From a virus (lineage: Duplodnaviria > Caudoviricetes): DNA of 64,000 nt. The stretch spans positions 1 to 64,000 of IMG/VR virus record IMGVR_UViG_3300021256_000074, one strand, 5' to 3'. This document shows, in pieces, positions 2,968 through 22,660 of the stretch. Within the stretch, counting starts at the first letter, position 1; each line of letters opens with the position of its first letter. A program made the position numbers and the translations under genes. The notes under the pieces are model-generated. The model was not told the DNA's origin. It was given only the letters and a program-made list of their open reading frames with translations, and made no database searches.

Positions 2968-3937
2968 ATCTTTCAACTGTTTTAGTTAACCAATCCTTTA
3001 CAGCAAAGAACCCGTTATCACGAACAGCATCGGATATGTCCTTTGCCTTAAATCTCTTATGAACAAATATAGCATCGAAGCCATACTGTTTACTATACTG
3101 TCGAGCAGTTTTCATTCCTGTTTTATCTCTGTCGTATAGTATAACAATATGCTTCCACCTTTCTTTCAATTGCTCTAGTATATCGTCTGGTATAAACGTA
3201 GTTTCACTAGAAGCAGCGATAGCACTAAATCCCATCTCATAAAGACACATCACATCTTTTAAAGATTTTGTGATGATAAGGAGATTACCACCCTCTTGTG
3301 GCAACTCGGCTAGCCCCTGAACGTGCCGATTTGTCAGATTGGTACGCCATTTAGTATACTTTGAGGCTAAAGGTCTATAAATCTTAAACCCGTCAAAGAC
3401 CTTATAGGCATACATAGGACTATCTTCTTTGTAGGTTCCTCTGACGACTCTATTACAAAGAAAGTATTTAATGCTAAACACATTGAATTTCTTCAACGTA
3501 GTTGTCGAAATATGAAACTTATTCCAATACTGTACATCTACATTTGTAAACGGTTGACGTACAATACCGATATCAGTTTCATACAAAACCCCGGGTCGAG
3601 TATACGTATTCTTACGTTTCTCTTGATTTGGGTTTGTCTTACGGACTATCCTCAGAAGTTCTTTTTCAAGCTCTTCACGAGTGTTTATATGACAATAAAG
3701 CTTAATAAACTTTAGAGCATTACCGGATTCACCATTTCCATGGTCTTTGAATAACAATCCTCCTGTTTTACCAGGGAATATTGCAAACGATGGTATCTTA
3801 TCATCTGTTCGCAACGGACTGTTCATCAGTTTCCCAGGTTTAAATGAACCCAGGTAATAAGAATAGATGCTATAATCGTCTACTTTATCCAACAAGTCTC
3901 TGAGACTCATTGTAATAGCAGTTTTTGTACTATACAT
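2960..3937 (-). CDS. DnaG-like DNA primase (TOPRIM)
   Basis: SPLR-x-D-x-x-PSF...FKDHG N-terminal domain; IITKSLKD and LYDRD TOPRIM motifs; KDISD. Confidence 0.88.
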   Translation of the reverse strand: MYSTKTAITMSLRDLLDKVDDYSIYSYYLGSFKPGKLMNSPLRTDDKIPSFAIFPGKTGGLLFKDHGNGESGNALKFIKLYCHINTREELEKELLRIVRKTNPNQEKRKNTYTRPGVLYETDIGIVRQPFTNVDVQYWNKFHISTTTLKKFNVFSIKYFLCNRVVRGTYKEDSPMYAYKVFDGFKIYRPLASKYTKWRTNLTNRHVQGLAELPQEGGNLLIITKSLKDVMCLYEMGFSAIAASSETTFIPDDILEQLKERWKHIVILYDRDKTGMKTARQYSKQYGFDAIFVHKRFKAKDISDAVRDNGFFAVKDWLTKTVERYV

Positions 3938-3957
3938 GGCTTATAGCTCTATTGTAT

Positions 3958-4037
3958 TGGGTGCCAGATGAGATTCGAACTCACATTTCTGTACAATATT
4001 AATTATGTACAGACGTTACCATTACCTTACTGACTCC
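3958..4037 (-). tRNA. Atypical tRNA-like element with a long AT-rich anticodon arm
   Basis: T arm GTGAG-TTCGAAT-CTCAT; acceptor GGAGTCAG/CTGGCACC with one mismatch; stem TCTGTACA/TGTACAGA. Confidence 0.55.
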
Positions 4038-4039
4038 GT

Positions 4040-4363
4040 TTATTGAAAATATGGAAACAACTGCTCCGGATCTTTAAAGTCTTTTAAAAGATACGGGGAT
4101 ACGTAATATTTCCCTATTTTGTAATCTGCATATTTTACTGTTTTCTTCTGCAGATATACCTTTGTGTTTTTATCTGTTACTGGTACAAGCCACCAGTAAT
4201 ATATATCCAAGTTATCTGTCGGCTTATTGCCGAACTTAGATACTAACTTTGGAACAATGTGCTCCTTTTCGAATTCAACATAATCTCCACGTTCACCGTG
4301 TACAATTCGGTTATATCCTGTAGCAAACAGTGTTCCGTTTTTAAGAAATATATTTTCTTTCAT
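4040..4363 (-). CDS. Hypothetical protein
   Basis: 107-aa ORF with ATG and A-rich leader. Confidence 0.75.
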   Translation of the reverse strand: MKENIFLKNGTLFATGYNRIVHGERGDYVEFEKEHIVPKLVSKFGNKPTDNLDIYYWWLVPVTDKNTKVYLQKKTVKYADYKIGKYYVSPYLLKDFKDPEQLFPYFQ

Positions 4364-4465
4364 AATTGTAGTATAGTGAGGACTCGAACCTCATGTATTG
4401 CTCAAACTGCATTTCGATAAAAGTTTTTAATTCAAAACGTTTCATGGCTTATAGCTCTATTGTTT

Positions 4466-4553
4466 TTGTGGAGTATATCGGGGTCGAACCGACTAGAATG
4501 CATTCGGCTGCTACACGGCAAGATAACTTGTCTCCTTAGTGCGCGCACACTCC
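4466..4553 (-). tRNA. Atypical tRNA-like element
   Basis: Acceptor GGAGTGT/ATACTCC-A; T arm GTCGG-TTCGACC-CCGAT; non-canonical interior. Confidence 0.55.
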
Positions 4554-4620
4554 ATAGTCTGCTATCCTCCTCGCAAGTTCATTACATTCTCGTATACCAT
4601 CTTTTTATACATACCCCAAT

Positions 4621-4686
4621 TTGTAGTGTGAAGGGGACTCGAACCCCTTTGTCCAACTGTTCTAAAGCTGGTTACCATGCACACCA
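4621..4686 (-). tRNA. D-armless tRNA-like element, 7-nt loop TTAGAAC (AGA, Ser-type)
   Basis: Acceptor TGGTGTG/CACACTA; T arm AGGGG-TTCGAGT-CCCCT; stem CCAGCT/AGTTGG; 8-nt linker replaces the D arm. Confidence 0.6.
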
Positions 4687-5016
4687 AAGCTGATTTAGAC
4701 ACAAAGACAAATCTACTTTTGTAGACATCTCTGTGCTTGTACACCCACCAAATCAACTTTTACCACTGACCTTTTATAAGTTTGTTTCTCACACAAAATC
4801 CATCATCGGGTAGCAGGCCATTTCAACCTGCACGTGTCTCATTATTCCGTTCACACAACTTGTGTTTCAAAGCCTACGTTTCTCTTTCGCCACACCCTAG
4901 GATACTTCTTATTGGTTGTCAGCACCACTGACCATTATCTTTCTGTGACACACTTTAATTTATTGCAATATCGCGCAGTTCGTCTCTGCGCCAGTCACCT
5001 CTTAAAACCTGTTAGG

Positions 5017-5616
5017 TTAGAAAGGCAGGTCATCAGCACCTGTTGGAGTCTCAGTTACCGGAGTAGCTGTGCTAAGCGGATCATCCTCCCTATCTGGCTG
5101 GATGGGGCGCTCAAGAAGATCGTTCTTCCAAAGCTTAATCTGAGACTCTTCTACATTCATAGGTTCAACAAAGATACCAAGAGAGCTAACTTTCGTATAA
5201 CCCTTCTTGTCATAAACAACCTTAAGACGCATACCCTGACGCATATTTGCAGGATTAGTAGCTGGTTCAAGCTGAGCTTTTACCCAATTAATCATCTCTA
5301 CAAACGAATTGCCTTCAAAGTCTGTATGCGAACCATTTGCAGCATCTATAACCTGTAGAATACGACCGAACTGCTGATTATCCCGTTGCTGCAGATCTTC
5401 ATCTGTCTTAATCCACATATTCTTCTCGTTCTTCCATTCAGTCATAGTTGCCGTCTGGCCTTCTGCGTTCTCAAATACAATCTCAAGGAAATCCCGACCC
5501 TGAGAAGTCTTGTTTACATTAACCTCTTTCAAGGTTACATTTTCGTTAATACCTACGGGCATATAGGAGCTATTAAACTCCTGATTGTTTGTTGTTGCTG
5601 TTTTTGTACTATACAT
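5017..5616 (-). CDS. Probable single-stranded DNA-binding protein
   Basis: Acidic C-terminal DDLPF tail; adjacent to Sak4-like ATPase. Confidence 0.7.
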   Translation of the reverse strand: MYSTKTATTNNQEFNSSYMPVGINENVTLKEVNVNKTSQGRDFLEIVFENAEGQTATMTEWKNEKNMWIKTDEDLQQRDNQQFGRILQVIDAANGSHTDFEGNSFVEMINWVKAQLEPATNPANMRQGMRLKVVYDKKGYTKVSSLGIFVEPMNVEESQIKLWKNDLLERPIQPDREDDPLSTATPVTETPTGADDLPF

Positions 5617-5643
5617 AATTTTCCTTCTGACTTATAGTTCTTA

Positions 5644-6378
5644 TTAGGATAAATAAACACGGTCCCAGTGTGTGGTCAAAACATTGTCATTCATTTCTGA
5701 AATAACAATATCTTTATTGCGCAAATGTTCTGGTCTACATCCTTTGGAAACATCATCTCCTCCGACAAATGAAATATGCACTTCATTGCCTTTTCGATAC
5801 ATATATCCAAGACCATCACACTTACGACACACCATATCTGATAGTTTACCTACCAGATCCAGAGATCGTTCACTCTTTTCTACACCGTCTATTTCAACAG
5901 TCTTATCCTTTGCGTGTCCAAGTAATATAAACTCGTCGCAAAGTTCTTTAAACATGTCTATCACCTTCAATACTGCTTGTCGCAAGTATCCCCAGCCTGC
6001 ACCCTGTGGAAGAGTTCGAACATCTGTTCCTGTCCAATTCTTACCCATAGGTTGCTGACGATATAGAGTTGCAGCATAACTCAGACAGATTTCCTCCAAG
6101 TCTGTTGCATTGTCTATAGTGATGTGCTTATAAAAATTATGTCCTACTTCTGCATTTTTAGCTCGAATGGCTTGTGCAATTTCACCTAAATCATTAATGG
6201 TTCGTGCTTGTATTGACATTGCATCAATAAAGGTTGAACCGTTTTCAAGGTCTATTATTAGATTATTTTCCAGTTGGGCTAACGCCGATGTCTTTCCCGT
6301 TTTCTCTTTTCCAAACAGCACGAGAAACTTAGGATTAGTAGACACAGCTGGAATTGGTTGTGTAGGTAGTGTTATCAT
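5644..6378 (-). CDS. Sak4-like / AAA_24 ATPase (ssDNA annealing)
   Basis: LFGKEKTGKT, IIDLE-x-G, ITID, GAGWG, LLGH motifs. Confidence 0.85.
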   Translation of the reverse strand: MITLPTQPIPAVSTNPKFLVLFGKEKTGKTSALAQLENNLIIDLENGSTFIDAMSIQARTINDLGEIAQAIRAKNAEVGHNFYKHITIDNATDLEEICLSYAATLYRQQPMGKNWTGTDVRTLPQGAGWGYLRQAVLKVIDMFKELCDEFILLGHAKDKTVEIDGVEKSERSLDLVGKLSDMVCRKCDGLGYMYRKGNEVHISFVGGDDVSKGCRPEHLRNKDIVISEMNDNVLTTHWDRVYLS

Positions 6379-6402
6379 GTGACTTATAGTTCTTATGATT
6401 AA

Positions 6403-6885
6403 TTAAAGAATGTTAATCTTAATATTGTCAATACCGCCGGTAAAGATATTAATAATAGCACTCTTCTTTGTGGTGGCAAGATCGTTCAAGAACGTAATGT
6501 TCTCGAAATCCGAATACTTATACGTATCGAAGCCGATCTGAATTTCATCATCGTAGAAGATGACGCGAGTACCATCACTAAGCGTATACATCTTGCCAAT
6601 AATAAAAGGAATCTTGTACAGACTCTTGTTCTTCTTATAGTTAGCAAGAAACTTAGTAGCCTTGATGAACGAATCATCAGCCTTCAGATGGCTACCAGTA
6701 ATAATAATCGGCTCATCACCGATATACGAAGTATTAATACTCTTGAACAGATACTTGTTCTTGTCCACTATATCAGCAGTAATAATGTTATCCAGCATCT
6801 CAGAATAGTTTGTGCAGGGATTACTGTTGAGAAAAAACTTACTAGTGTTAGTATTGTTGCTCGTGAATGAATAAGTCTTCGTCAT
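6403..6885 (-). CDS. Hypothetical protein
   Basis: 160-aa ORF in operon. Confidence 0.75.
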   Translation of the reverse strand: MTKTYSFTSNNTNTSKFFLNSNPCTNYSEMLDNIITADIVDKNKYLFKSINTSYIGDEPIIITGSHLKADDSFIKATKFLANYKKNKSLYKIPFIIGKMYTLSDGTRVIFYDDEIQIGFDTYKYSDFENITFLNDLATTKKSAIINIFTGGIDNIKINIL

Positions 6886-6929
6886 AATTTCAGCCTAATT
6901 TTATGGTTAATACTACAGCAGACGTAACA

Positions 6930-7853
6930 TTAACTTTCGATCAGATTGTTGTACATCAAGTCGTTCTCGAATTCAAGTATGCAGGGCTTTCCTGCGTCTC
7001 GATTTTTCAGTATATGAATATATACCTTGTTTTGTGTAGGTAAACGGTTAGGACCATATTCTTGAATGTTCAATATCTCTGGTCGATGCAGTACAAGCAC
7101 ATAGTCGCTTGCCTGAAATATCGCATCTGCCGATGAAATATCACTTCTCATCGGGTAGTGACTCGATGGGTTGTTTATCCTTTCAGGAGCTTCGATATTT
7201 CTATTCATCTGAGCAATTTGTATAATGGAAGTCAAAGGGAACTTTTTAACCTGTATAAATACACGTTCAAGCTCGCTTATCGTTTCGATTACAGACCCGA
7301 TTTGCTTAGTTAATAAAGCATGGTCATAAATAACTACAAAATGCTTGTTCGTACCTTTTACGTACTTTGCATAGAAATCTCGTATTGTTTGTTCTACTTG
7401 CATGGGAGTTCCTGGCGAATCTACAAAATAGATAGGATACTCCTTTAGCTGATTAGATACACAGACGACTTTTCTGAAGGTCTCGTCGTCCAGGTCCGTT
7501 TCCGAACTATACAAAGCAGAAGTCGTTCTTCTTAGCTTATTTGAGAGCGTTCTTCCGACTTGCCTAAATCCAACCATCTCTAACGAGAATGATAAAACTA
7601 CAACCTCCTCTTCAGGATTAAGATCAATCAAATCAGTTTGGATTAAGTTAGCAAATGAACTTTTTCCGCTTCCAGAAATGCCAGCTATGGTATAAACGGT
7701 ATTGGGTTCAATACCTCCCATACACTGCTTATTGAACTTTACCCATCTAGTTTTCAAGGACACAATGTTGTGCTCTCGTCTACCCGCTATATACGCAATT
7801 GCCTCTTGGGCAACTTCTCGCATTGAGCGGACATTAGATAAGTTCTGTTCCAT
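6930..7853 (-). CDS. DnaB-like replicative helicase (C-terminal domain)
   Basis: AGISGSGKS, FSLEM, VIYDH, AQMNR, ILKNRD SF4 motifs. Confidence 0.92.
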   Translation of the reverse strand: MEQNLSNVRSMREVAQEAIAYIAGRREHNIVSLKTRWVKFNKQCMGGIEPNTVYTIAGISGSGKSSFANLIQTDLIDLNPEEEVVVLSFSLEMVGFRQVGRTLSNKLRRTTSALYSSETDLDDETFRKVVCVSNQLKEYPIYFVDSPGTPMQVEQTIRDFYAKYVKGTNKHFVVIYDHALLTKQIGSVIETISELERVFIQVKKFPLTSIIQIAQMNRNIEAPERINNPSSHYPMRSDISSADAIFQASDYVLVLHRPEILNIQEYGPNRLPTQNKVYIHILKNRDAGKPCILEFENDLMYNNLIES

Positions 7854-8400
7854 AAGATTGACTGGCTAATTGCTCTGTGTCTTGCATTTCTTCCTCAGAT
7901 ACTTCCCATTGGTTCCGGCTGAGCCAGTTCCACATCGTCATCATATAGCTTATCTTTCCTTCTCTCATCTTTTTATCGATTTCAAATTTAAGACAATCTA
8001 TTATATGCTCTGCCATAGCAGAACTCCGTCCAACTTTTGCATTGAACAGATGACGACACTTATTTACATTTGCTCGCAGATAACATTTTGAGCCATCTGG
8101 GCGCAATACGTAAACTGGGTACATATCATAGAACAAATCAAAGTAGGATTTATCCGTAGACAAACTACTTTCTAGCTGACTTGTTGCTACATATGTAATT
8201 GAATTCCCTCTCTCGATCGAGGTAATAAGTCCCTGATTAACTAAGTACTGTATTTCGTCGTCGCTGATTAGGCTGACAATCTTGCGGACGTCTTGATATT
8301 TTGGTTGATTCTTATCCAATACAATACTTAGGAAGAGTAACTGATTTGAATTGATTTCTGGAAATACATCCAGAAGTTTTGTGTTTACTTCAATAATCAT
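7834..8400 (-). CDS. Putative replication initiator / helicase-loader-type protein
   Basis: FDLFYDMYP and M-x-NWL motifs; lies between PolB and DnaB. Confidence 0.5.
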   Translation of the reverse strand: MIIEVNTKLLDVFPEINSNQLLFLSIVLDKNQPKYQDVRKIVSLISDDEIQYLVNQGLITSIERGNSITYVATSQLESSLSTDKSYFDLFYDMYPVYVLRPDGSKCYLRANVNKCRHLFNAKVGRSSAMAEHIIDCLKFEIDKKMREGKISYMMTMWNWLSRNQWEVSEEEMQDTEQLASQSYGTELI

Positions 8401-8429
8401 CTCACTGACTCTTGGTTCTCAAGTGGTTA

Positions 8430-10289
8430 CTAAAATAATTCTAGTTGTTGTTCAGTGAAGTCAGCAATTATCTTTTTGGCTTCACTGATATAGTAACGAT
8501 AGTTAATCTTTCGATCTTCTATCGGGCGATCATCAAACTTGTTCAGGATTGTTACTCCTGACTTTGTTAGCATATTGGTTGCTTCTCTATTACTGTCTGG
8601 GTCGATCTTGAATAGAAAATAACCGTTTGTGCTTGCATAAAACCTATTGATACGCTGTATAGGTTTATCACCGTATACAACTTTGAACTTCTTATCTACT
8701 GCTTGTGACATCAAGAAGTCCCGGATATCTTTATCCTTCTCAATAAATTCTGTCACTGGCGTTCCCTGTGTAAAGTATGCTATTACAGCTTTTGGTATTA
8801 CTACCGGAGCTAAACCTTTGCCTAACTTGGTCTTGGTTATAAACATACCTTTTTCTTCTATCTCACCGCCTTTTAAGACCCCAAAGTAGTCGTTAATTGC
8901 GTATTGATAGAATGCTTCATACTCATCAGACTCAAATTCAAGTCGTGTAATCCGTTCCACTTCTGAGATGGCTCCCTGAATTCCTTCTCTAAGCGTGTTT
9001 TTAGCCCTGTAGACGACTCCATCTGTGTTGACCTGAATGATTTCACACCCAAGGTCTAAAAGCCTGTCTACGAGCATTAAAAGTATTAGCTGACCGTTTA
9101 TTCTAATCTTAAAAACATTGAACGGATCATACATCCAACTGACCTCCTGTTGCATTTTACCTGTAGGAGAGTTAAGCACGATCTTTAGAAACAGATTCTT
9201 AACCTTTTGTCCTGTATGTTTTGCTTCCAAACGCTCGGCTTTAAGCCCAGCAAACAGGTCGCAAAATAGTTTTCCCAAGTGTCGAGGACCCCATTGATAC
9301 TCAATGAGTAACGAAGGGTACATAGACGCCACATCTGCGTGCCCAATGAACTCGTCTTCACCTGGATGGAATATCTTTGGTGTATGGATAGAATGAATAC
9401 CACCAACACCTATAGAGTATACCACATTCGAGAGAACAAACTTCTTCTCGTAGCCTTTGCGTTCTTTAGAATACACAATCTGTTTCTTCATGTCTTCCAG
9501 AACGTCTTGTAACTTTGGATTTTTATATCGTATGAATGGTAGAATAACATCCTTCAACGGAATATAATCCATTGGAGAACGCATTTCCTTTATAACATTT
9601 TTAGGAATACCTGACTGCTGAGAGTATTTCTCGAGTAGAAAGGTCTCTGCCATTTTTACACTGTCCATAGATAGACAGTCGATACCGTGTTCTTTTTCTA
9701 TAAACAAACGTAGTTCAACTTGGTCTTTCAACCGGCTTAGAAGCTCTGTAGTCGATTCTACATCGTTTATATTGTATGCAATCATTTCGTCAATTTTGTC
9801 TACCGGTAAATGTTGATTGAAGTCTCCTTCATACTCATAGACATTCTTATAGTGCATTGTAACCTGCATGGTTTTCAAACCCACTCTAAGCTTTTGACTA
9901 AACTGCATTGTGAGTAAGTCCATAGATTCGAAGTAATGTGCATACTTCCATCGTTTGAGCTTCTCACGGCTTCCCTCTTCGTCTTCCACTATATATGATG
10001 AAAGATTGAAAAGAGACTGACAGATTCTCCAGTAAGGTAAATCTACCAGTTTTGTTTGATAATCTATTATATAATTCAAGACAACATCATCATAGTGATG
10101 ATTATTATAACCACAGAACATTATCTTTGGTTGTAAAAAGAACGAAACCAACTCATTGAGCTGGTTCCTACGTTCTGAAATCTCAAATTTGTATAGCGTA
10201 TCGTTTTCTGTGTCTTTACAGCAACAGTGGAAACAATTTGGGAAGATCTCAATGTCGTAAACAACGACTAATCGATCTCGTATCCACAT
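8430..10289 (-). CDS. polB: Family B DNA polymerase
   Basis: ExoI YDIE, ExoII YNNHHYD, ExoIII YNINDV, DVASMYPS, KIVLNSPTGK, NTDG. Confidence 0.95.
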   Translation of the reverse strand: MWIRDRLVVVYDIEIFPNCFHCCCKDTENDTLYKFEISERRNQLNELVSFFLQPKIMFCGYNNHHYDDVVLNYIIDYQTKLVDLPYWRICQSLFNLSSYIVEDEEGSREKLKRWKYAHYFESMDLLTMQFSQKLRVGLKTMQVTMHYKNVYEYEGDFNQHLPVDKIDEMIAYNINDVESTTELLSRLKDQVELRLFIEKEHGIDCLSMDSVKMAETFLLEKYSQQSGIPKNVIKEMRSPMDYIPLKDVILPFIRYKNPKLQDVLEDMKKQIVYSKERKGYEKKFVLSNVVYSIGVGGIHSIHTPKIFHPGEDEFIGHADVASMYPSLLIEYQWGPRHLGKLFCDLFAGLKAERLEAKHTGQKVKNLFLKIVLNSPTGKMQQEVSWMYDPFNVFKIRINGQLILLMLVDRLLDLGCEIIQVNTDGVVYRAKNTLREGIQGAISEVERITRLEFESDEYEAFYQYAINDYFGVLKGGEIEEKGMFITKTKLGKGLAPVVIPKAVIAYFTQGTPVTEFIEKDKDIRDFLMSQAVDKKFKVVYGDKPIQRINRFYASTNGYFLFKIDPDSNREATNMLTKSGVTILNKFDDRPIEDRKINYRYYISEAKKIIADFTEQQLELF

Positions 10290-10317
10290 GACTCTAAGGT
10301 TCTTTAGTTAATACTAG

Positions 10318-10385
10318 TGGCGCGCTAAGGAGTCGAACCTCTCTACTGGACCACATCCAGAATGCTACCGTTACACTAAACGCCC
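10318..10385 (-). tRNA. tRNA-His(GTG)-like, degenerate
   Basis: D arm GTGTAACGGTAGCAT; stem CTGG/CCAG around ATGTGGT; T loop TTCGACT; imperfect acceptor. Confidence 0.6.
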
Positions 10386-10557
10386 GTTTGAGACAGATTT
10401 GATATTGCATGACTAAGACCATTATCGTCACGTCTTACTTGGCACTGTCTCTTTGCAAGTTATCTTATCTTGCGCCTCTCTTCACGCGGTGAGTCCGCCA
10501 AGAGATGTTACTGTTCTATTTGTCCTCTTATCCGACTTTCTCACTTCAAGTAACAGC

Positions 10558-14390: not shown

Positions 14391-15047
14391 TTATTCCTCA
14401 GTTTTGTTGACCGTTACGATGGTGCCAGAGCCACCGGGCATGTCGACAGATGTCTTCAGAGCGGAGTTGATCCAATTCTCCTCAACACGCCGGGCCTTAT
14501 TCTCGTTGTCGACGATGTCACCCTTCAGGGTAACAACCATCTTCTGACAAGCCTGGATGTGCTCCTCGAGATACATGATCTCGCGGCGCATGGCGTCGTT
14601 CAGAATCTTGGCCAGTGTCTTGGCGTCGAGGAAGAAGTGGTCCTTCTCGCCCTTAATGGCTTCGGCGATAGCTTCTGCAGTGGTCTTACCCATCGAGCGC
14701 AGAGTATTCTCTGTGATAGGCAAGAACAGGTCACAGGTACCATCCTCGTGAGGATTGATAGCAATGCCGATCTCGTCGTCATTCATGGGGTCTTTTACTA
14801 GCACAGTGCCTGCGATGAGGAAATTCTTCGCAAGCAGGCGTTTCGGGCTACGATTGAGGATAAATCCTTTCTTTTCACCCTTTTCGACAGCCAATTTGTC
14901 AGCTTCGAAGCCCTTCTGACCACCTTGCCAGGCCATGCGGACTTCGACCTTGAAGAACTGAGTTCCCAAGTTCGAGCCTATCTTTGAGATAAGCTGAACG
15001 TTATTCGTCACAACAGGTGACGCGATGTTTACATCAATTGTTTTCAT
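14391..15047 (-). CDS. Hypothetical protein
   Basis: 218-aa ORF with strong codon bias. Confidence 0.85.
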   Translation of the reverse strand: MKTIDVNIASPVVTNNVQLISKIGSNLGTQFFKVEVRMAWQGGQKGFEADKLAVEKGEKKGFILNRSPKRLLAKNFLIAGTVLVKDPMNDDEIGIAINPHEDGTCDLFLPITENTLRSMGKTTAEAIAEAIKGEKDHFFLDAKTLAKILNDAMRREIMYLEEHIQACQKMVVTLKGDIVDNENKARRVEENWINSALKTSVDMPGGSGTIVTVNKTEE

Positions 15048-15059: not shown

Positions 15060-17400
15060 TATTTGATATCGTGGTTGATCCACCAACGATAAGAATAAAT
15101 ACTTCCTCCACTTTTGGCGGGAGGTTAACCCTTGAGTCGCTACGCGTAACTAGACTTTTCTTCATCTGTTAGTGTGGCGATATATGTTTTTTTGTGCGTC
15201 CACGGCTCAAGGCTCTACTGTGGATGGTCTTTTCAATTTTTTGATTTTTATCATTTATCCGTACTTATGAGAGGAATGTTTTTAGCTTTCCATCATTAGG
15301 TTGTTTCCGGCTATTTTGACTTACATAATCGATGTATCGACTGTATTCAAAAGGGGACCAACTGGTATGGTCATCCATGCCCATCATCGGAAGATTCTTC
15401 TAACTTTGGTAAAACTACAAACGTGGATGTTGTGTAATCAAACACAAAATTTACTTGAACCATAAAGTTTATTTTTCGTAAAACTTATACTGAGTTGGTA
15501 TTACCCAGCATCGTTATGTAGCGTTAAAGTAGCTACCCCGTTGGCAAAATTTCATTTCTGACTAATGCTCATAGGACTCCACAAAAATTTGTAATATCTC
15601 CGCTAGTGTATTTTCCGAACAATAGTGAATCTACTACGCTGTACGTCTCTGATTATTTTACAAGCCTAACAGCTACATACAAAACGTGCTTGGAGGTTCC
15701 TTTTCTTAACGGTGTGACTGTGCACCTACGTAGTAAACATACGTTTCATTATCGGACGGTACGTTAGTTCCAGAGCTAACTACCCTACGGCTTTTTGTTG
15801 TACATTCAGCTTTGCTGCTGTCTTCTGTTTTATCTCTCATTTCTTCGAGATGTGCGCGAATACTGGAGGAATTTCACCTCATACATCTAGATTTATCACC
15901 CACCTAAAGATTCGCTTCTCCGGTTTCCATTTTTACTACTTATGCATAAAGCATAAGGTTCATCCTGGTCGCTTTACCCCTCCTAGACAGGGAGGTGATA
16001 CTTCACTTCACGATAGGCTGCCTTGCATCTGAATTTCTTCATTTGTCATGTATACGACTTCATGGTCCGAACGCACCATCTAGATTTGCTGTCTAGACTT
16101 CTGGTCTACCCATCTTGTCAATTTGCTTCTCAGGAACGGTTGGCACACGACTTTCCTACATCCCACATAAAATGGCTACTGCTTCCCATACAACGGGAGC
16201 TATGGTTTCCAACGCCAGTATATAACGTAATATGCTTGGTAGGGGGACGGTCATTTCTTGTTATACACAACACTATTGTTATGCATTATTTGGTTTTGGT
16301 TCTGATTTATTTTCGTAAGAAGTATCTTTGTCTAAATATAAGCATTCATACATAGTATATAGCTTACTACTCTACAGGGACTACGTAATATAGTTCTTAT
16401 AAGTGACCCTTCTAACTATCTTCATCTTTCCCTCAATAGCCGCTTTTCATATATACTGGAATGTATACTTACTCGGACGGACCGTTGTTTTTGGTTACAA
16501 TTGCATGTATAACCGCATTTTTTGACTGTAAAGTAGTCACCTATGACATAAGTAGCATTTCCTCTTGCTTATATCAATCTTTACCACTAACGTTGCTTGC
16601 CTACTAACAACAATAATGTTTAGAATAGTCTTATCTACGCGGACTTCACTCGCTCTGTGGCTGCATCCCACAGGTGTCTCATTCTGCTTTTATATACCGC
16701 ACGAACGATCAAGGCTAGGCGGTCGCATCTCAACATAATCAGCCGTTTTACCTTCCTACTCCCCCTACGCTGTACAAGCAACAGAAGGCACTGGACTTGA
16801 ACCAGACTGGACTTACGTAGGCGCCATATTTACGATACAGCTTATGAGTATTATCCTCATAATATTGTTTACTCAATGCGTTTTTTCGGGCCTCAATGCA
16901 GGCTTTGGAGACCTGTGAACACTACCCTACGGCTTTTGTGAACTGATACATCATGTTTATTTGTGGAGGCCTACTCTAGTCGTATACCGATATCATTGCA
17001 GACAATACCATACCATGTATATTCTCTCCCACAGTATAAGTTTTCGGCCGTTATAAACATGTTTCAACTCGTGTAACGTTATACTAATCTAATGTATCAT
17101 CAATTAGCATGTCCGATACGTGTACGTTTTGCGCGATTGGCAACTCGCGACTCATGTGTCTTTATCCATTACTCCATCACCAGACGGTTCTCATGGTGGA
17201 AAGGGTTGATACAAACACTCTCCCTCTTACTGTACGCTTTTCAACTATGTAGTACTCATAGAACGTCGCAGTATTTCATCCTACCTTTTGGGTTTCTCAC
17301 CTTTTGAGAAGGCTAACATATTCTCGGATCAAGTTGTACTATTTCGCACCTGGGCTAATGAGACCCACCTGAAACGTGCTTACCTGTTATCAAGGAAGAC
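15060..17400 (-). ncRNA. Candidate large structured non-coding RNA locus
   Basis: About 2.3 kb with no credible ORF; many short hairpins with GNRA-type loops on the minus strand; internal 17-bp direct repeat. Confidence 0.45.
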
Positions 17401-17412
17401 TGAGCTCAAAGC

Positions 17413-17949
17413 TCAATCGTCTACCTTGATGTGATACTCAGTGGTATCCCCTACAGAGGAATTGAGATTTTCAGGACATATTTCGTCTACTTTGTGCACT
17501 TCATAGACTGATATGCATTCTCCTGTGGGCCCTTCCTTGTTACCCACCTGCGTTGCTAGATAGTAAACCGGCACCCGGATGGTGTCTGACTTTACTATTG
17601 GCTTGGGTGCAGGAGCCCTACGCCATTTGACCTTAGTTACCTGTCTTCTCTGCTCCAAGTCGACAATACGCTGTTTGAGCGAATCGACTATTGCAGAATC
17701 AACTCCAACAGAGGTCTGTTCTGTTGTGTTGAGACCCTTCTTTTTAGCCAGGTCTAGTAAAAGATCCTGGGGTATTATCGGGTAAGCAATGGTACCAGTA
17801 TCTGTAGATGGAAGTCTAAGATAAGGCAGCGTTGCAGCCGATAGTGTTTTATATCCTGACCCAGGCGATGGGTCTGATGCAGTTACAGCCATCATGATTC
17901 CTGAAATCGCAAAAGCTATACTGCAAAGGATAGATGTTACTTTTCTCAT
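17413..17949 (-). CDS. Secreted or membrane-anchored hypothetical protein
   Basis: N-terminal signal/TM segment; 178 aa. Confidence 0.75.
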   Translation of the reverse strand: MRKVTSILCSIAFAISGIMMAVTASDPSPGSGYKTLSAATLPYLRLPSTDTGTIAYPIIPQDLLLDLAKKKGLNTTEQTSVGVDSAIVDSLKQRIVDLEQRRQVTKVKWRRAPAPKPIVKSDTIRVPVYYLATQVGNKEGPTGECISVYEVHKVDEICPENLNSSVGDTTEYHIKVDD

Positions 17950-18074
17950 AGTTTGATACTATTTGATAAGTTTGTAACCAACTTTACGACGTAACCCGAT
18001 ACAAGTCACAGTAACGTAGTCGTGCCAAAGGTTTTTCACGCGGTCAGTGAAGGATGGCTCGTATTCACTGACCT

Positions 18075-19520
18075 TTATGCGTTTTTTCCTTCGCCAGGCT
18101 TCTCCTCTGTGGCAGGTGCCTTCTCCAGCTCAGTCACGTTGGCTTCTGAGAAGTCAACCAACTGTTCCATAGCTGGCAGGAACATGTTGCAGATGATACC
18201 TACGTACTGATGCAGGTTGTGGACCAGATTCTCCTGTTCCATCTCCTTAGCCTTTATGCCAGGATAGTACGTCTCAAGAATCTTGGAACCCATCATGCGG
18301 GCAAACTTGTAACCCTCACGCGAGCTGTCCTTGTAGTCGTCGGGGAACGCGTCGATGATATCGCGGCTAGGCATGTTGACGAAGGTAACAACCTCCTCAA
18401 TGTCTTCGATATACTTCTTTGCAGAAGCAATCTTATCCTCACCCTGCTTAATCGCAGTAGCGTTCTTCTTGGCGTCCTTCTTGAGAGCCTCGAGATTCTT
18501 GTGATAGCCGTCTATCAGCTCGTTTGCAGTCTGAATCTCAGAGTCTGCATACCAGCGAACCAAGACCTTCACGATGTCGGCGACAAGCGTGTCGTCTATC
18601 TGAGGCATGCCGGTGGTCTTGTTCAGAGAAGCGTTGCGCATCATACAGAAGGAAACCACAGGATTCTTCGTACGCTGCACATTCTCGAACAGCATCTTTG
18701 CCATACCACCAACGGTAAAGGTACACTTACCGAGCAGATGAGCAATCTCAGAGAGGAAATCGCAGCGGCTTTTCTGCTTAAGAGCGGCCAGAGCTTCTTC
18801 TTTGTTCTCTTCTTTACTTGCCTGCAGGCTACGATACGATTCGTAGAAGTTGATAGCGGTGGACACCTTGTCGTAGAAACTCTCGTTACCACCGTTGCCC
18901 TTGACGAGGATGTGCAACAGAGACTCCTTCAGCTGGTCATCGTTCTCGATCTTTGTGGGATCGTTGATAACCTTCTTCTCGGCAGCGGCACGCTCTTCAG
19001 CAGCCTTCTGCTTGACCTCCTTAGAGGGCTTTATTGCGGTTGAAGGAAGTTCTATCACACCTTCGTCGTTAGGCTCGGGCAGGGCCTTCATGTCGATGTT
19101 GACGTTGAGGGCACTGGCTGCCTCAAGCAGCTTCTCGAGCTGTGTACGACGCATTGCGATTGCAAACGGAGTCTGCGCGATAGAAACCTCGTTGACGAGC
19201 ATAGCCACCATACCGACAGCAGTGATCTCGTTGATCTTGTCAACGCTCTCCTGCGAGATGTTATAGCGCTTTGCTGCCTCCTTGTCGTCGAAGAATCGCT
19301 TGTCCAGGAGGTGCAAGAGATCCTCGGTGTGGTTTGGATCGAGACCAGCGAGTGCACGAGTCTGTGCGAGCTTGTCAAGATCACCAAGCTGTATTACAGC
19401 TATTTTGTCGTTTGCGGACTTACCGGCGGCTGCGCCAGTCTTTCCTGTCTCAGGAGCAGCCTGCTGTGCTGCTGCCTGCTGTGCTGCACTCTGAGCAGCG
19501 TTTTTCTTATTCTTTCCCAT
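18075..19520 (-). CDS. Hypothetical protein (481 aa, probably highly expressed)
   Basis: Strong codon bias; TTATCAAAATG start context. Confidence 0.88.
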   Translation of the reverse strand: MGKNKKNAAQSAAQQAAAQQAAPETGKTGAAAGKSANDKIAVIQLGDLDKLAQTRALAGLDPNHTEDLLHLLDKRFFDDKEAAKRYNISQESVDKINEITAVGMVAMLVNEVSIAQTPFAIAMRRTQLEKLLEAASALNVNIDMKALPEPNDEGVIELPSTAIKPSKEVKQKAAEERAAAEKKVINDPTKIENDDQLKESLLHILVKGNGGNESFYDKVSTAINFYESYRSLQASKEENKEEALAALKQKSRCDFLSEIAHLLGKCTFTVGGMAKMLFENVQRTKNPVVSFCMMRNASLNKTTGMPQIDDTLVADIVKVLVRWYADSEIQTANELIDGYHKNLEALKKDAKKNATAIKQGEDKIASAKKYIEDIEEVVTFVNMPSRDIIDAFPDDYKDSSREGYKFARMMGSKILETYYPGIKAKEMEQENLVHNLHQYVGIICNMFLPAMEQLVDFSEANVTELEKAPATEEKPGEGKNA

Positions 19521-19595
19521 TTTGATAATGTTTTTAAGAATGTAGATACTGTGTGGTTGGCTAGACCACTTAGCTGTGCCAATGGATTACTATCT

Positions 19596-20018
19596 TCATC
19601 CATCATGATGTGTTGAAGAAACCTTCGTTAAGCATTCCGGCGGTTTTGTAAGTGTTTTTGTTGGTTGGTCTCGAGTTCTCCCGAAGACCTTACTTGAAAT
19701 AGCAGAAGTCTCGTGTTCTTCAGGTGTGAATGCCTGAACCGCAGATTCTAAAGCTGTCACCTTTGTGGGCGTCAACGATGTATCTGCCAAAAGGTAAACA
19801 ATACTGTTACCTGATACAACCGTTGGCATCTGCGTGGGACACACCTGCACGAGATTCTCACTACTTCGTTCATTACCGATGGTACGAGTGACCATTACGG
19901 TTGCTGCATATCCTAAGATGAAGGATATAGCAAGCTGCCAGAAAAGCTTATTGCTCTTGTTATAGCGAGCTATTCCAAAAGCTAAGGCCATTCCTAAAAT
20001 GAACCACAGTAGGATCAT
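19596..20018 (-). CDS. Membrane protein translationally coupled to the sigma factor
   Basis: Two N-terminal hydrophobic segments; ATGA overlap with sigma stop. Confidence 0.75.
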   Translation of the reverse strand: MILLWFILGMALAFGIARYNKSNKLFWQLAISFILGYAATVMVTRTIGNERSSENLVQVCPTQMPTVVSGNSIVYLLADTSLTPTKVTALESAVQAFTPEEHETSAISSKVFGRTRDQPTKTLTKPPECLTKVSSTHHDG

Positions 20019-20581
20019 GTTTTGATGTTTAATGATTTTTTAACTTTGCGTCGGGTTCTTGACAGCATAGACTTTACAGTCCCTACTGGAACCCTCAGCG
20101 ATTTACCGATTTGTTCTACAGTCATATTATTCACATAGAAGAGTTTGCATACCTTACGAGTGGTATCCGGAAACTTGTCAAACTCAGCAAGTAAATGTTC
20201 GTAAGTTAGACGGTTGACAATGTCGTCTTCTGACGAACCACTTGTCTCTTCTAATGGCAGTCTACCATCAGCTTCTCCAAGTACATTGCTTTTGTTCTTC
20301 ATTTCTCGCAAATAATCAATTGCAGTTCGGTTGGCAATAGTTCTCAGCCATCCTCCAAAGGAGTCATAAGCTGTGAACAATGAGAGTTTATTGTGCACTT
20401 TTAAGAACACGATGTTTGTAACATCTTTCGCCTCGTCCATATCTTTTATATACTGAAAGAGTAAGTTATCAACAAACCCTTTGTATCTGTGGAACAGTGC
20501 ACTGAAAGCAGATTCATCACCTGCTTGCGCTCTTTTGATAAGAGTAATCTCTTCGGAAGTAATTCGGGGATTTTTACTCAT
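20015..20581 (-). CDS. ECF-family RNA polymerase sigma factor
   Basis: AQAGDESAF, EAKDVT-x-x-VFLK, FGGWLRTIA-x-RTAIDYLR (region 2); EQIGKSL-x-x-PVGTVKSMLSR (region 4). Confidence 0.92.
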   Translation of the reverse strand: MSKNPRITSEEITLIKRAQAGDESAFSALFHRYKGFVDNLLFQYIKDMDEAKDVTNIVFLKVHNKLSLFTAYDSFGGWLRTIANRTAIDYLREMKNKSNVLGEADGRLPLEETSGSSEDDIVNRLTYEHLLAEFDKFPDTTRKVCKLFYVNNMTVEQIGKSLRVPVGTVKSMLSRTRRKVKKSLNIKT

Positions 20582-20669
20582 ACCAAACAAATAGAATTAA
20601 GTAACGATAGAGTACACTACCGAGTGGTTATTAACCTCAAATGAGATATAACAGACACTAGCTGTATAG

Positions 20670-20743
20670 CACGCCAGGATGGATTCAAACCATCGACCTC
20701 CCATGTTTGGTGTATGGGCGCTCTGTCGCTGAGCTACTGACGC
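20670..20743 (-). tRNA. tRNA-Trp(CCA)-like with expanded 9-nt anticodon loop
   Basis: Acceptor GCGTCAG/CTGGCGT; D arm GCTC/GAGC; CCCAT-ACACCAAAC-ATGGG; T arm GATGG-TTTGAAT-CCATC. Confidence 0.65.
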
Positions 20744-20886
20744 TGTCCCGTCGGACAATTCTGCTACGCACGGATATGGTATCGTTCTGTATCTTCTGCA
20801 TGCCCCACTGCTGCATAGCATAGAGCCCTGCTGGAATACCAATCCAGGTGAGTTTGTTAAGGCAGTTCACTCTGCGGTTTTCAGGG

Positions 20887-21261
20887 CTAAAAAGGTAAAT
20901 CCTCAGTATATATGTCACCAAGAATTTCCCTTATACGCGACGTCATCCGTCTATGATACTCTATAGCCATTTCTTTACTAAGTATTCCTTCATCCACATA
21001 CTTGTTCATCATGTTTGTAGCGATTCGTACTCTGACTCCAATCCATTGTGTATTAGAATTGTACTTCGTTTTTGGCAGTTTGAACAGTATGTTGCGGTTT
21101 ACCCAGTCAAGAATGTTTATTATTTTTGGCTTAAGTATATATAACGGCTCGTCTTCAGATCCAGCAAATAGCAACCGTGTATAGTTACCACCTGCGCATT
21201 GTTCTAGCATCTTAATTTTTGCAGATGCTTTTAAATCAGTATTGGAAAATACACTAAACAT
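20887..21261 (-). CDS. Hypothetical protein with SSB-like -EDLPF tail
   Basis: 124 aa; ends at TAG. Confidence 0.75.
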   Translation of the reverse strand: MFSVFSNTDLKASAKIKMLEQCAGGNYTRLLFAGSEDEPLYILKPKIINILDWVNRNILFKLPKTKYNSNTQWIGVRVRIATNMMNKYVDEGILSKEMAIEYHRRMTSRIREILGDIYTEDLPF

Positions 21262-21269
21262 AATCTAAC

Positions 21270-21767
21270 TTAGATACGCCCTTCAAAACATTTTATTAAG
21301 AAATCAACAAGATTATCTACATACTTGTATTTAGCCTGTTTTTCTTCCTCAGACATTGTTTCTGAAGGCAATAGTGTACTTAAGTAGCCATTGATAAGTT
21401 CAACTTTAATATCAAACTCATCTTTTCCTACTTTACGAGAGATTTGGTACGCATTTTCCATATATGCGTACTTCTTTCTGAACCACTTAACCCACGAAGA
21501 TACTCGAGTCCAATACTCTTTCTCTTCTGGCATCAAGTTGTCCCAATCAATACTTTTATCAAACTCAAAATTCCTATAAAACTTAGCAATGCCAAGTATA
21601 ATTCTCGTAGCATGTTTTCGTTCATTGTTATCACAATAGAATTTTATGAAATTGACATAAGCATGATCAACCCACTTCTCTTTGGCTTTCTGCCATTTGA
21701 GAGCATAGTCTACTACTTTAGGACACCTGTCCCTCAGCATGGCTTTGTATCCAGTTGTTTTTCGCAT
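21270..21767 (-). CDS. Hypothetical protein
   Basis: Start moved to ATG 21767 because the longer ORF overlaps the tmRNA and a mini-tRNA. Confidence 0.75.
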   Translation of the reverse strand: MRKTTGYKAMLRDRCPKVVDYALKWQKAKEKWVDHAYVNFIKFYCDNNERKHATRIILGIAKFYRNFEFDKSIDWDNLMPEEKEYWTRVSSWVKWFRKKYAYMENAYQISRKVGKDEFDIKVELINGYLSTLLPSETMSEEEKQAKYKYVDNLVDFLIKCFEGRI

Positions 21768-21780
21768 GTTTGTTATGTTT

Positions 21781-21829
21781 TGGGGTGAGGTGGGGATTCG
21801 AACCCCATAGCCCATGCAGCTCCTCACCC
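21781..21829 (-). ncRNA. Mini tRNA-like element (acceptor plus T arm)
   Basis: GGGTGAGG/CCTCACCC stem; TGGGG-TTCGAAT-CCCCA T arm; small AGC/GCT hairpin. Confidence 0.65.
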
Positions 21830-21839
21830 ATTCCCACTT

Positions 21840-22140
21840 TGGTAGGTCTAGGTCAACCGACTTCACGCTGCCTCCTGGAGGCCCGTGTAGTCTGCAATGT
21901 TATTATTGCCGTTTAAATTTATATCAGAGCGCTTGTCTTACGACTGTCTTACTTTCTGCTGCCGTCTAAACCGGTCAAGCCCAAATATGCCGGTTTTAGT
22001 TAATATTTTATGTGGATACCCCGACACCGGCAAACGTCCGCTCCACTCAGTACCCAAGTTCTCTGTACCGAAGTGGACCTGGAGGGAGTCGAACCCTCGT
22101 CCGAACAGCTTATCCTCAGACACGCTAAGATTCTTGTTGT
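21840..22140 (-). ncRNA. ssrA: Circularly permuted (two-piece) tmRNA gene, tag peptide GNNNIADYTGLQEAA
   Basis: 3' module GGACGAGGGTTCGACTCCCTCCAGGTCCA (~22102-22074) lies upstream of 5' module GGGCTTGACCGGTTTAGACGGC (from 21982); acceptor GGGCTTG/CAGGTCC has G3:U70; tag ORF 21910-21863 ends AA-TGA; outer boundaries approximate. Confidence 0.88.
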
Positions 22141-22284
22141 GAACATCTTGATGATCAGTCAAAACGTTCGATTTAAGGCTATTTAAAGCCGTTCTAAGAC
22201 GTTTTCTCTACTCTCATGGATAGCTGGTCCACTTAAGCTTTAAAGACGCTTAAAAACAAACTTTTCAATACTCTTAAATAAGGT

Positions 22285-22660
22285 TGATACAGTGGTCTAT
22301 TACTGGCTCGAGGCTCTCAATAGGTTGTATCTGCATTCTTGAAATCACTATGCATCGGGTTTAAATCACTCTTAGTTTCATAATTACCGATGGGCTCGAG
22401 GCTCTCCATAGTTCGTGATTTTGATCAAATGACTTCATATTATTACCCGTGAAGTCGGGTTCAATCATCCCATAGTACTGGCTCAAGGCTCTGCCTATGT
22501 GCAGTTAATTCTGCTTTTTAGAAGTTGCGAGTGTCGATACCTGTCGACTCATCGTGATTATCCGTTTATAATACCGATAATCTACATAGTCGCCCCCCAT
22601 AACGTAGTCTGCTACTTCTGTTGTTTATAGAGTATTGGCTCAAGGCTCTGACTCTATAGA
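22285..22660 (-). ncRNA. Non-coding locus with four hairpins displaying AGAGCCT(T/C)GAGCC
   Basis: Motif at 22304-22317, 22392-22405, 22479-22492, 22636-22649, each in the loop of a stem of different sequence. Confidence 0.6.

Follow-up and report, generated by a model that had tools for sequence, protein, structure and literature searches.

Introduction

The operator of the RNA phages MS2/R17 (and PP7) is a hairpin that contains an unpaired adenine together with the start codon of a replication gene; a symmetric coat-protein dimer, seating two adenines in equivalent pockets, binds it and represses translation. T4 directs one phage factor, the translational repressor RegA or the endoribonuclease RegB, at the initiation regions of numerous early messages, most of them for replication. 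RegA sites lack structure and are AU-rich; RegB cleaves at GGAG, mostly in initiation regions with a few sites elsewhere. Repeated stem-loops also lie at early-gene junctions of T4-type phages, where promoter-early stem-loop (PeSL) cassettes, gained and lost among relatives, include a sigma-70 promoter and are conserved in sequence over about 50-60 bp, and the hairpin promoters of N4 start transcription a few nucleotides 3' of the hairpin. The crAss-like phages count among the most abundant gut viruses of animals, and to our knowledge their gene control is almost undescribed, with no signal reported for the early (replication) module.

The motif studied here, in a 64,000-nucleotide window of a rumen crAss-like phage genome (IMG/VR record IMGVR_UViG_3300021256_000074), is a real, strand-specific folded element that is conserved in relatives, and our best reading of it is a previously undescribed family of post-transcriptional operators on replication-gene mRNAs, read by a putative protein. 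Like the MS2/R17 and PP7 operators it is a small hairpin that places an unpaired adenine at a replication-gene start codon; having one or more unpaired purines and containing or touching the start codon, it falls with the MS2-type operators as a functional class, not by homology. It differs in having two bulges related by two-fold symmetry, where MS2/R17 has one bulge and a loop base, and in its setting, a dsDNA phage with 12 or more sites distributed over many genes, together with a non-coding array, where binding is putative; we know of no coat-protein homologue for this phage system. With CsrA/RsmA and CsrB/RsmZ it shares a short signal at mRNA starts that is multicopy in a non-coding RNA, and its reader would be a dimer, but here the spacers of the array are conserved, and the array is linked to a tmRNA gene and present in genomes without mRNA copies. 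The analogy to Csr drawn in the original prediction does not hold as written: there is no conserved GGA (ANGGA) as in a CsrA/RsmA site, and the conserved bases pair with one another. No CsrA-family protein matched among the 30 module ORFs scanned (each against Pfam or PHROGs), a search confined to the phage side.

Prereplicative control in T4 has been reviewed (PMC2988021). Compared with RegA and RegB targets, the signal here is a structured, symmetric mini-helix; a RegB target was rejected, with no GGAG in the motif and no RegB-like match in the 30 scanned module ORFs, among which no RegA/RegB-type protein gave a profile match either. Unlike in PeSLs, conservation is limited to two bulges and a 4-bp helix, and there is no evident host-type promoter. 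HDV-like theta ribozymes, which have a nested double pseudoknot and a catalytic C, adjoin phage tRNAs and cleave at the tRNA 3' end (PMC10879173). At 12-15 nt plus a simple outer stem, lying 7-13 nt from tRNA-like ends, the element is too short for the P1-P4 of such a ribozyme, and there was no HDV-type Rfam match across 3500-26500. Rfam 15 gave no match over any copy at the gathering score, nor at E up to 5 within the same interval, and we found no paper describing the element, in keeping with the original remark that the motif was not recognised from any familiar family.

Results

The motif is repeated on one strand

An exact search with the 14-mer as first written found it 8 times, always on the minus strand, compared with an expected 0.16 (shuffles reaching 8, 0/100), which bears out its minus-strand repetition. 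With the last A dropped, the resulting 13-mer occurs exactly 10 times in the whole 101.1-kb genome, each time on the minus strand below 23 kb and never on the plus strand; the final A is replaced by G in the copy at 15203 and by C in that at 22392. Strand counts for the element were 97 versus 7 and, in a second count, 91 versus 7. The sites originally listed are real, and the extra nucleotide ascribed to the polB copy (10289) is present as a 3-nt centre; the list had overlooked the copies at 2456-2469 and 6160-6173 (inside Sak4), and perhaps a third at 24618-24630, which is doubtful and not conserved in the related genome G005 (Table 1). Among the neighbouring genes, the 199-aa ORF formerly called SSB-like was without a family match in profile scans, and the 188-aa ORF is the first gene of a unit that holds a DnaB-like helicase.

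Table 1. Positions of the mini-helix copies and of the features beside them in the window.
Feature	Position	Strand	Context
Mini-helix copy, 3-nt loop	2456..2469	-	In 3' end of DUF1064 ORF; 9 nt before ATG of AAA-ATPase ORF 1673..2446
Mini-helix copy	3937..3950	-	Abuts ATG of primase gene (2960..3937); tRNA-like 3' end 7 nt upstream
Mini-helix copy	4445..4458	-	Abuts ATG of 34-codon ORF; 82 nt before ORF 4040..4363; tRNA-like 3' end upstream
Mini-helix copy	5628..5641	-	12 nt before ATG of 199-aa ORF 5017..5616
Mini-helix copy	6160..6173	-	Within Sak4 coding sequence, codons about 69-73; pair 2:14 is A:T; 4-nt loop
Mini-helix copy	6380..6393	-	2 nt before ATG of Sak4 (5644..6378)
Mini-helix copy	8406..8419	-	6 nt before ATG of 188-aa ORF 7834..8400
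Mini-helix copy, 3-nt loop	10289..10303	-	Abuts ATG of family-B DNA polymerase (8430..10289); tRNA-like 3' end upstream
Non-coding copy, 5-bp outer stem	15203..15216	-	155 nt before ORF 14391..15047
Circularly permuted (two-piece) tmRNA gene	21772..22166	-	ARAGORN; Rfam RF04321, 62 bits; downstream of cluster
Conserved non-coding leader with four cluster copies	22167..22700	-	Directly upstream of tmRNA gene; without ORF
Cluster copy 4, nearest to tmRNA gene	22304..22317	-	
Cluster copy 3	22392..22405	-	Conserved block about 20 nt upstream
Cluster copy 2	22479..22492	-	
Cluster copy 1, 8-bp outer stem	22636..22649	-	
Possible variant copy, pair 2:14 is A:T	24618..24630	-	About 24 nt before ORF 24036..24593; doubtful

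The element is a symmetric, covarying mini-helix

What had been taken for a conserved loop on variable stems is itself paired, the conserved bases forming a 4-bp mini-helix with one unpaired base per strand, and so two symmetric bulges (A in this genome). It is closed by a 2-5-nt loop, is frequently extended by a variable outer stem and measures 12-15 nt without that stem; its invariant bases are both bulged A together with a C:G or T:A pair, and at 8406..8419 pair 2:14 is T:A in many relatives. In Oafivirinae crAss-like phages, covariation at orthologous sites involves each of the four pairs. Stem covariation in homologues, a check that the original prediction had proposed, was found in unfiltered polB-start sites from 35 loci compared with 500 shuffles and slid controls, where 73% of cells pair against 64% in shuffles (0/500), the covariation score is 0.40 against 0.27 (0/500), and 4/4 pairs change on both sides; the slid controls give 16-48%. 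At this polB site, G002, G008 and L016-L028 have the two 5-nt strands exchanged; the helix thus occurs flipped and the site is therefore two-fold symmetric. By sequence logic, the bulges offset the complementarity, so that the halves do not make an inverted repeat in duplex DNA, which speaks against a double-stranded DNA site.

For a strict test, an outer stem was scored where 4 or more contiguous Watson-Crick pairs flank a copy; 5/12 copies had one against 8.4% of random positions (p = 0.002), and outer stems of orthologous copies in relatives are fully compensated (for 15203..15216, in L040, L042 and L060); the variable stems originally described are thus partly confirmed. When folding was compared with shuffles, the 22636 copy alone was clearly more stable, and gene-start copies fold weakly against the strong folds of the cluster. 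As a separate observation, strictly Watson-Crick pairing and 2-nt loops would fit DNA equally, and the G.U and A.C counts of outer stems (32 vs 30) are uninformative between RNA and DNA.

Copies lie at start codons and once inside Sak4

The ATG abuts the motif at the primase, polB and the 34-codon ORF and lies within 16 nt of it elsewhere in the start-site set. Among 69 unique gene-start copies the ATG abuts the helix in 29, the remainder being 1-16 nt off, and in four relatives (L031, L032, L039 and L058) the Sak4 ATG lies inside the loop of the orthologous copy. With the start codon in the loop, against the helix or at most 16 nt after it, the element is therefore in the mRNA. Enrichment at start codons, also proposed beforehand as a check, was seen for generalised A-type matches, 26% of which fall between -9 and +20 relative to an ORF start (random positions, 3.5%), and the claimed placement in translation-initiation regions of replication genes was borne out.

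The Sak4-internal helix is of A/A type (by its two bulged bases) at the same codons in about 35 loci, and in T/T genomes it is rewritten to the T/T type through a Gln-to-Ser and an Arg codon change. That a selected copy lies about 200 nt inside Sak4 implies that the element does more than cover start codons. This copy cannot work by start-codon covering, which speaks against the operator view.

Bulge identity switches in concert between lineages

Bulge pairs are A/A in about 45 loci, T/T in L033, L038, L048, G014 and G020, and C/C in L057. Among ORF-start copies no locus mixes bulge classes, three singleton matches excepted, and mixed bulge pairs are without strand bias. The 2456..2469 copy, with orthologous copies in many relatives, has a T/T-type helix at this site in the T/T genome L048. 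This concerted switch, uniform per genome and differing between lineages (A/A, U/U, C/C), implies a co-evolving dimeric reader. A search by gene content found no gene that tracks the presence of the element, residues discriminating the bulge classes occurred at chance level only, and one weak reader candidate, ORF 6403..6885, is without a recognisable fold.

The cluster belongs with the tmRNA gene

As originally claimed, the cluster adjoins the tmRNA gene, its leader (22167..22700) lying directly upstream of that gene (21772..22166). Three to four copies stand just upstream of the permuted tmRNA in 6/6 genomes where both were located, and the leader is arranged as here in G002, G003, G005, G008 and G018. 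The cluster hairpins are orthologous between genomes, spacer blocks are partly conserved, and sequence conservation runs from the last hairpin into the tmRNA. The cluster is present in G014, G015, G018 and G020, and gene-start copies were absent at the starts checked in G014, G015 and G018, with none found in G020. That such genomes keep the cluster shows that it serves a purpose apart from the gene starts, a further point against the operator view. The proposal of a simple sponge at 22.3-22.65 kb therefore gives way: from the orthologous hairpins, conserved spacers and genome comparison, the cluster is probably older than the gene-start regulon and more than a sponge.

Discussion

A specific protein reader of the element is our best inference. 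Because a two-fold axis relates the two strands of the element, the reader is likely to be a dimer with an equivalent pocket for each bulged base. We consider it plausible, if somewhat short of an even chance, that this symmetric RNA site is read by a dimer which shuts replication-module translation and has the tmRNA leader as its primary partner. The fold, its symmetry, its position in mRNAs and the concerted bulge switch are shown by the data, and from these we infer the reader together with the direction and mode of control. Bound at a start codon, the reader would keep the 30S subunit off and so shut down or time the synthesis of primase, polymerase, Sak4, the helicase unit and others. Since gene-start copies are weakly folded alone, their default state would be open and closed by binding. 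The leader sites, with their strong outer stems, would be the primary partner and may buffer the reader too, and this more widely conserved location probably predates the mRNA sites. More tentatively, the Oafivirinae may own a private RNP system in which a co-evolving dimeric reader would distinguish a lineage-specific A, U or C bulge code on the 3-4 symmetric mini-helices of the tmRNA leader, the reader being co-opted in some lineages to control translation or decay of the replisome gene set. The RNA-binding-protein operator of the original prediction survives as a strand-specific, folded, conserved element at replication starts, and its loop display and simple sponge do not. The element, present on the replisome genes and on a non-coding RNA linked to the tmRNA, is a testable handle, a 12-15-nt site with a mutational logic of bulge identity, compensatory pairs and flipped helix, and the lineage bulge switch is a natural specificity experiment and a route to the reader by co-variation.

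The mini-helix could instead be the target of a sequence- and structure-specific endoribonuclease on early mRNAs, similar to T4 RegB, which we hold to be possible but rather unlikely. Cuts in start regions would silence replication messages, internal cuts would hasten decay, and leader cuts would mature the tmRNA precursor. The distribution suits this, mostly initiation regions plus one selected copy inside Sak4, as for RegB, and so do the cluster ahead of a permuted tmRNA, whose maturation calls for additional endonucleolytic steps, the occurrence of this cluster without gene-start copies, and the copies following tRNA-like 3' ends at 3951, 4459 and 10304. However, no nuclease candidate tracks the element, and the hairpins lie upstream of the tmRNA gene, away from its mapped piece boundaries. 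A proposal set in DNA, that the helix in single-stranded or extruded form is an N4-like promoter for the early virion RNA polymerase and the cluster a tandem tmRNA promoter array, seems to us unlikely; if true, it would answer what the crAss virion RNA polymerase recognises. The element shares with N4 virion-RNA-polymerase promoters strand-specific small hairpins with 2-3-nt loops in an early region and an injected RNA polymerase, and pairing here is strictly Watson-Crick. In phi14:2 the module is early and transcribed by the virion polymerase, an enzyme that needs a single-stranded template and has no known early motif (bioRxiv 10.1101/2020.03.07.982082). Copies are confined to this module, co-oriented with and upstream of genes, tRNA-like genes and the tmRNA (one is intragenic), and the lineage switch of specificity classes resembles T7-group promoters. 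Yet start codons are found inside the helix or touching it, the copies number 12 or more compared with 3 in N4, and the crAss polymerase fold is different. With transcription starting a few nucleotides 3' of the hairpin, as in N4 (PMC4496689), transcripts would lack the ATG in the largest (abutting) class, 29/69 unique copies, and the loop-borne Sak4 ATG of four relatives, and to that extent the copies do not have an N4-type geometry. At a single gene the helix-to-ATG distance varies from -7 to +3, so that a leaderless start is not fixed either; the cluster spacers are conserved as in structured RNA, and assembled RNA-library contigs run through copies, a weak point.

Two further accounts start from the tmRNA and from the repeats themselves. 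Bacteroidota are not known to use Shine-Dalgarno pairing, and the hosts here are presumably Bacteroidota (assumed from general knowledge of crAss-like phages). The cluster hairpins might be structural modules of the tmRNA, in the stretch 5' of the acceptor piece where a permuted gene would have pseudoknots 2-4, and the helix a handle for a ribosome-associated factor, borrowed by replication mRNAs to recruit ribosomes without a Shine-Dalgarno sequence, activating initiation and not repressing it. The adjacency in 6/6 genomes, the conservation continuing into the tmRNA and a minimal tmRNA core (Rfam match 21863-22128) agree with this, but we think it improbable: a bulge switch among close relatives (G014 vs G015 and G018) is ill-suited to a ribosomal partner that is conserved, structure around a start codon usually makes initiation less efficient, and the Sak4-internal copy is left unexplained. 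Most strongly disfavoured, and very improbable, is a functionless dispersed repeat, either a small palindromic unit that is mobile or one left behind by recombination between early-gene junctions. Copies are indeed gained and lost between lineages at orthologous gene starts, and repeated sequence continues beyond two copies, those at the primase and the 199-aa ORF, through the start codons and into the bases after them. Conservation, however, extends to helix geometry and the two bulges only, while paired bases, loops and flanks differ; fixed sites show compensatory changes, and the bulge class switches across whole genomes, including synonymous rewriting inside Sak4.

A bulged mini-helix recurs on the coding strand of the replication module

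The window was found to represent the first 64 kb of G000, a complete genome of 101.1 kb bounded by direct terminal repeats, whose replication genes share approximately 72-76% DNA identity with the crAss-like phages cr272_1, cr273_1 and cr131_1, the last of which is classified as Crassvirales; Suoliviridae; Oafivirinae. Related RNA and DNA runs came from bovine and sheep gut. Genes lie on the minus strand from position 1 to ~34 kb and on the plus strand beyond, and the minus-strand module encodes a primase, a Sak4-like protein, a DnaB-like helicase, a family-B polymerase (PolB), an AAA ATPase, DUF1064 and PDDEXK proteins and a sigma factor that the most distant relatives also retain. In phi14:2, a crAss-like phage, the injected virion RNA polymerase transcribes the replication module, which is the early class there, and no promoter motif was found for this class (bioRxiv 10.1101/2020.03.07.982082).

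The repeated, minus-strand-only motif of the original prediction was borne out, with eight exact occurrences of the 14-mer (0.16 expected), all on the minus strand, and ten of the 13-mer in the entire genome, all on that strand and below 23 kb. The polB copy does carry one additional central base, as first described, and two copies and a doubtful third were added to those known (see table). Five complete relatives had 6-9 copies each on the replication-module strand and 0-2 on the opposite strand, and 80 Sak4-centred loci had 97 copies on the gene strand against 7 opposite. Primase or lagging-strand priming sites were rejected because the copies are limited to 25 of 101 kb and are linked to start codons.

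Coordinates of features discussed in the text (positions in the window)
Feature	Position	Strand	Remark
Additional mini-helix copy	2456-2469		Beyond the original prediction
Additional mini-helix copy, internal to Sak4	6160-6173		Beyond the original prediction
Additional mini-helix copy, doubtful	24618-24630		Beyond the original prediction
Cluster of four mini-helix copies	22304-22649	minus	Leader upstream of the tmRNA gene
Permuted tmRNA gene	21772-22166	minus
Look-alike in the PDDEXK ORF	1383-1397		Rejected
Look-alike within polB	9734-9746		Rejected
Phage sigma factor gene	20015-20590	minus	Early module; PHROG 1740, E = 1e-24
tRNA-like gene	3951-4036	minus
tRNA-like gene	4459-4553	minus
tRNA-like gene	10304-10385	minus
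Suppressor tRNA	36513-36587	plus	Anticodon CTA
Rfam tRNA match	49154-49261	plus	Spans 108 nt; model of 71 positions

Covariation defines a symmetrical helix with two bulges

The motif had been described as a conserved loop on variable stems. With positions numbered A1 G2 A3 R4 C5 Y6, loop, R10 A11 G12 Y13 C14, variants showed that this "loop" is itself a helix of four pairs: 2:14 (G:C, A:T or T:A), 4:13 (A:T, G:C or C:G), 5:12 (C:G or T:A) and 6:10 (T:A or C:G). A3 and A11 were never paired in variants of the A-type motif, and the loop measured 2-5 nt. To avoid circular selection, covariation was scored in the 26 nt that precede the start codon of polB at all loci having it, whether or not the motif was present. 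Here 73% of cells paired, compared to 64% in shuffles, and the covariation score was 0.40 compared to 0.27 (each reached in 0/500 shuffles), with both sides varying in four of four pairs and slid controls pairing in 16-48%.

At the polB site the two strands of the helix are swapped in the related genomes G002 and G008 and in the L016-L028 group of loci, an exchange that amounts to rotating the helix around a two-fold axis, and cluster copies have identical sequence on both helix strands. As the bulges offset the complementarity, the halves do not form an inverted repeat in duplex DNA, and complementary covariation offset in this way demands an intrastrand fold, in RNA or in single-stranded DNA. 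On the same grounds, a site for a DNA-binding dimer in duplex DNA, whether a palindrome or a direct repeat, was rejected. An ECF-sigma promoter (GAAC ... GTC) was rejected on spacing (2-5 nt vs 16-17), and complementarity to the anticodon arm of the suppressor tRNA was unsupported in the window, where the base before the cluster copies is not T.

The variable outer stems originally proposed are real, though uneven. At least four contiguous flanking pairs were present at 5 of 12 window copies, compared to 8.4% of random positions (p = 0.002), stems of at least five pairs were seen in 31% of copies in relatives (5% of controls), and orthologous non-coding copies were fully compensated; gene-start copies are thermodynamically marginal (-1.4 to -4.9 kcal/mol), and only the copy at 22636 was more stable than shuffles in the window. 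A comparison of G.U (32) with A.C (30) pairs in these stems, meant to separate RNA from template-strand DNA, was uninformative.

The helix abuts or contains start codons and recurs within Sak4

Enrichment at starts, a check proposed for the motif, was found, with 26% of generalised A-type helices lying within -9 to +20 of an ORF start compared to 3.5% of random positions. Of 69 unique gene-start copies, 29 directly adjoin the ATG, and nearly all others precede it by 1-16 nt. The ATG of Sak4 is 2-3 nt downstream of the helix in some genomes, abutting in others and within the loop at four loci (L031, L032, L039, L058), and the protein N-termini align exactly; polB offers no alternative start upstream of the exonuclease motif. 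These positions put the whole helix, or its 3' half at a minimum, in the mRNA.

A further A/A helix (both bulged bases A) occupies Sak4 codons ~69-73 in ~35 A/A loci, and in T/T genomes a T/T helix occurs at the same codons, arising via a Gln-to-Ser change and an Arg recoded from AGA to CGT, which marks this internal copy as a selected one. Of the two intragenic look-alikes, the one in the PDDEXK ORF was treated as a coding coincidence, since G014, a T/T genome, keeps it as A/A and five others (G001, G002, G015, G016, G017) have mismatches in it, and the one within polB is confined to the window's genome.

Several other features were seen near gene starts. The primase (start 3937) and a 199-aa ORF (start 5616) have in common their first seven residues, MYSTKTA, in nearly the same bases, and in the PDDEXK ORF the pseudo-copy is followed by a comparable YST stretch (1340-1375); either a common N-terminal peptide or a scar left by recombination may account for this. 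Three tRNA-like genes have good T-arms and acceptor 3' strands but odd anticodon arms (a 7-bp stem with a 10-nt loop, or a 5-nt loop), and were missed by ARAGORN, with one reaching only 25 bits in Rfam. A tRNA-like 3' end lies directly upstream of polB in G000, G001, G008, G015, G018, G020, G022 and G023. Between it and the polB start (e.g. 10304-10312), most compared genomes have an 'aacta/actaa' block, with or without the mini-helix, which looks like a signal of its own. In distant relatives that lack the mini-helix (L077-L081 at ~9940-9990, and L062-L074), other repeats stand before Sak4, one being a 10-nt unit in three tandem copies, and these relatives may use a different signal at this position.

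Bulge identity switches in concert

The genome G014, presumed to be a negative control, was found to have a cluster in which both bulges are T in three of three copies, and the distant genome G020 has four T/T cluster copies. T/T helices occur at polB and other sites in L033, L038 and L048, and C/C helices at polB and a 188-aa ORF in L057. At ORF starts each locus holds one class (A/A in ~45 loci, T/T in three, C/C in one), with three stray singletons among ~200 hits as exceptions; helices with unlike bulges showed no strand bias. A G/G class in G014 was dismissed as chance, its matches being scattered through coding sequence. One class per locus, switched between lineages, indicates a putative specific reader protein with two equivalent base pockets, which would co-evolve with its sites.

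No gene tracked the presence of the element when phyletic profiles of all G000 and G014 ORFs were compared across 12 genomes, a comparison in which G014, taken as negative, actually carries the T/T form. Among 15 replication-module proteins, at most 1-3 columns discriminated the classes, which is chance level, in a set with only 3-4 independent non-A lineages. The best of these, a Lys column, falls in ORF 6403..6885, whose structural model (pLDDT 66) gave no fold match above Z 3 and an empty ESM Atlas search.

The tmRNA leader cluster and the role of the element

Six genomes (G000, G002, G003, G005, G008, G018) have three to four hairpins that precede a circularly permuted tmRNA by 130-500 nt, two copies lie upstream of the annotated tmRNA of G001, and the G020 cluster is ~500 nt upstream of a stretch matching tmRNA. 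The hairpins are orthologous between genomes and their spacers hold conserved blocks. As G014, G015 and G018 have a cluster and zero copies at the gene starts checked, and all copies found in G020 lie in its cluster, the cluster location is more widely conserved than the gene-start location and is probably older. The conserved spacers, tmRNA link and cluster-only genomes leave the cluster unexplained by the operator-sponge system of the original prediction. Logan contigs of four metatranscriptome runs pass through several mini-helix copies. Contig depth was very high at 21.9-22.6 kb, probably through cross-mapping of bacterial tmRNA because loose ends fall at 22073 and 22104-22108.

The reading that we favour, tentatively, is a post-transcriptional operator on the replication messages, in which a dimeric reader would bind the mini-helix and block initiation, with the tmRNA leader as its primary RNA partner. 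A target for a RegB-like nuclease would have the same anatomy and explains the Sak4-internal copy and the link to the tmRNA no less well, and we consider it possible if rather unlikely. The strand and module in which copies lie, their small loops and the class switch agree with a DNA hairpin promoter used by the virion polymerase, but start codons within and abutting the helix conflict with this reading, which seems to us doubtful. A structural module of the tmRNA, or a ribosome handle, was ranked as improbable, and a functionless repeat as very improbable indeed. A known Rfam family, which the original prediction had named as speaking against it, was not found, since no family matched the element, and a literature search yielded no paper describing an element of this kind or crAss tmRNA leaders. 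The HDV-like theta ribozymes that adjoin gut-phage tRNAs are larger than the mini-helix and differ in fold.

Other features of the genome

Late-module ORFs (plus strand, beyond ~34 kb), one of 5581 codons, were called only with TAG read through, and TAG recoding is suspected there; it is not needed in the early module. A suppressor tRNA lies on the same strand. Between 15050 and 17400 there are 2.3 kb without a long minus-strand ORF, where RNA-library contigs from two studies omit 56-281 nt at several points (e.g. 17098 to 17273), which could be introns or strain indels. The Rfam tRNA match on the plus strand probably carries an insertion or intron, given its length relative to the model. The relative G008 has a RAGATH-1 hammerhead ribozyme (L150:8912-8982, 66 bits).
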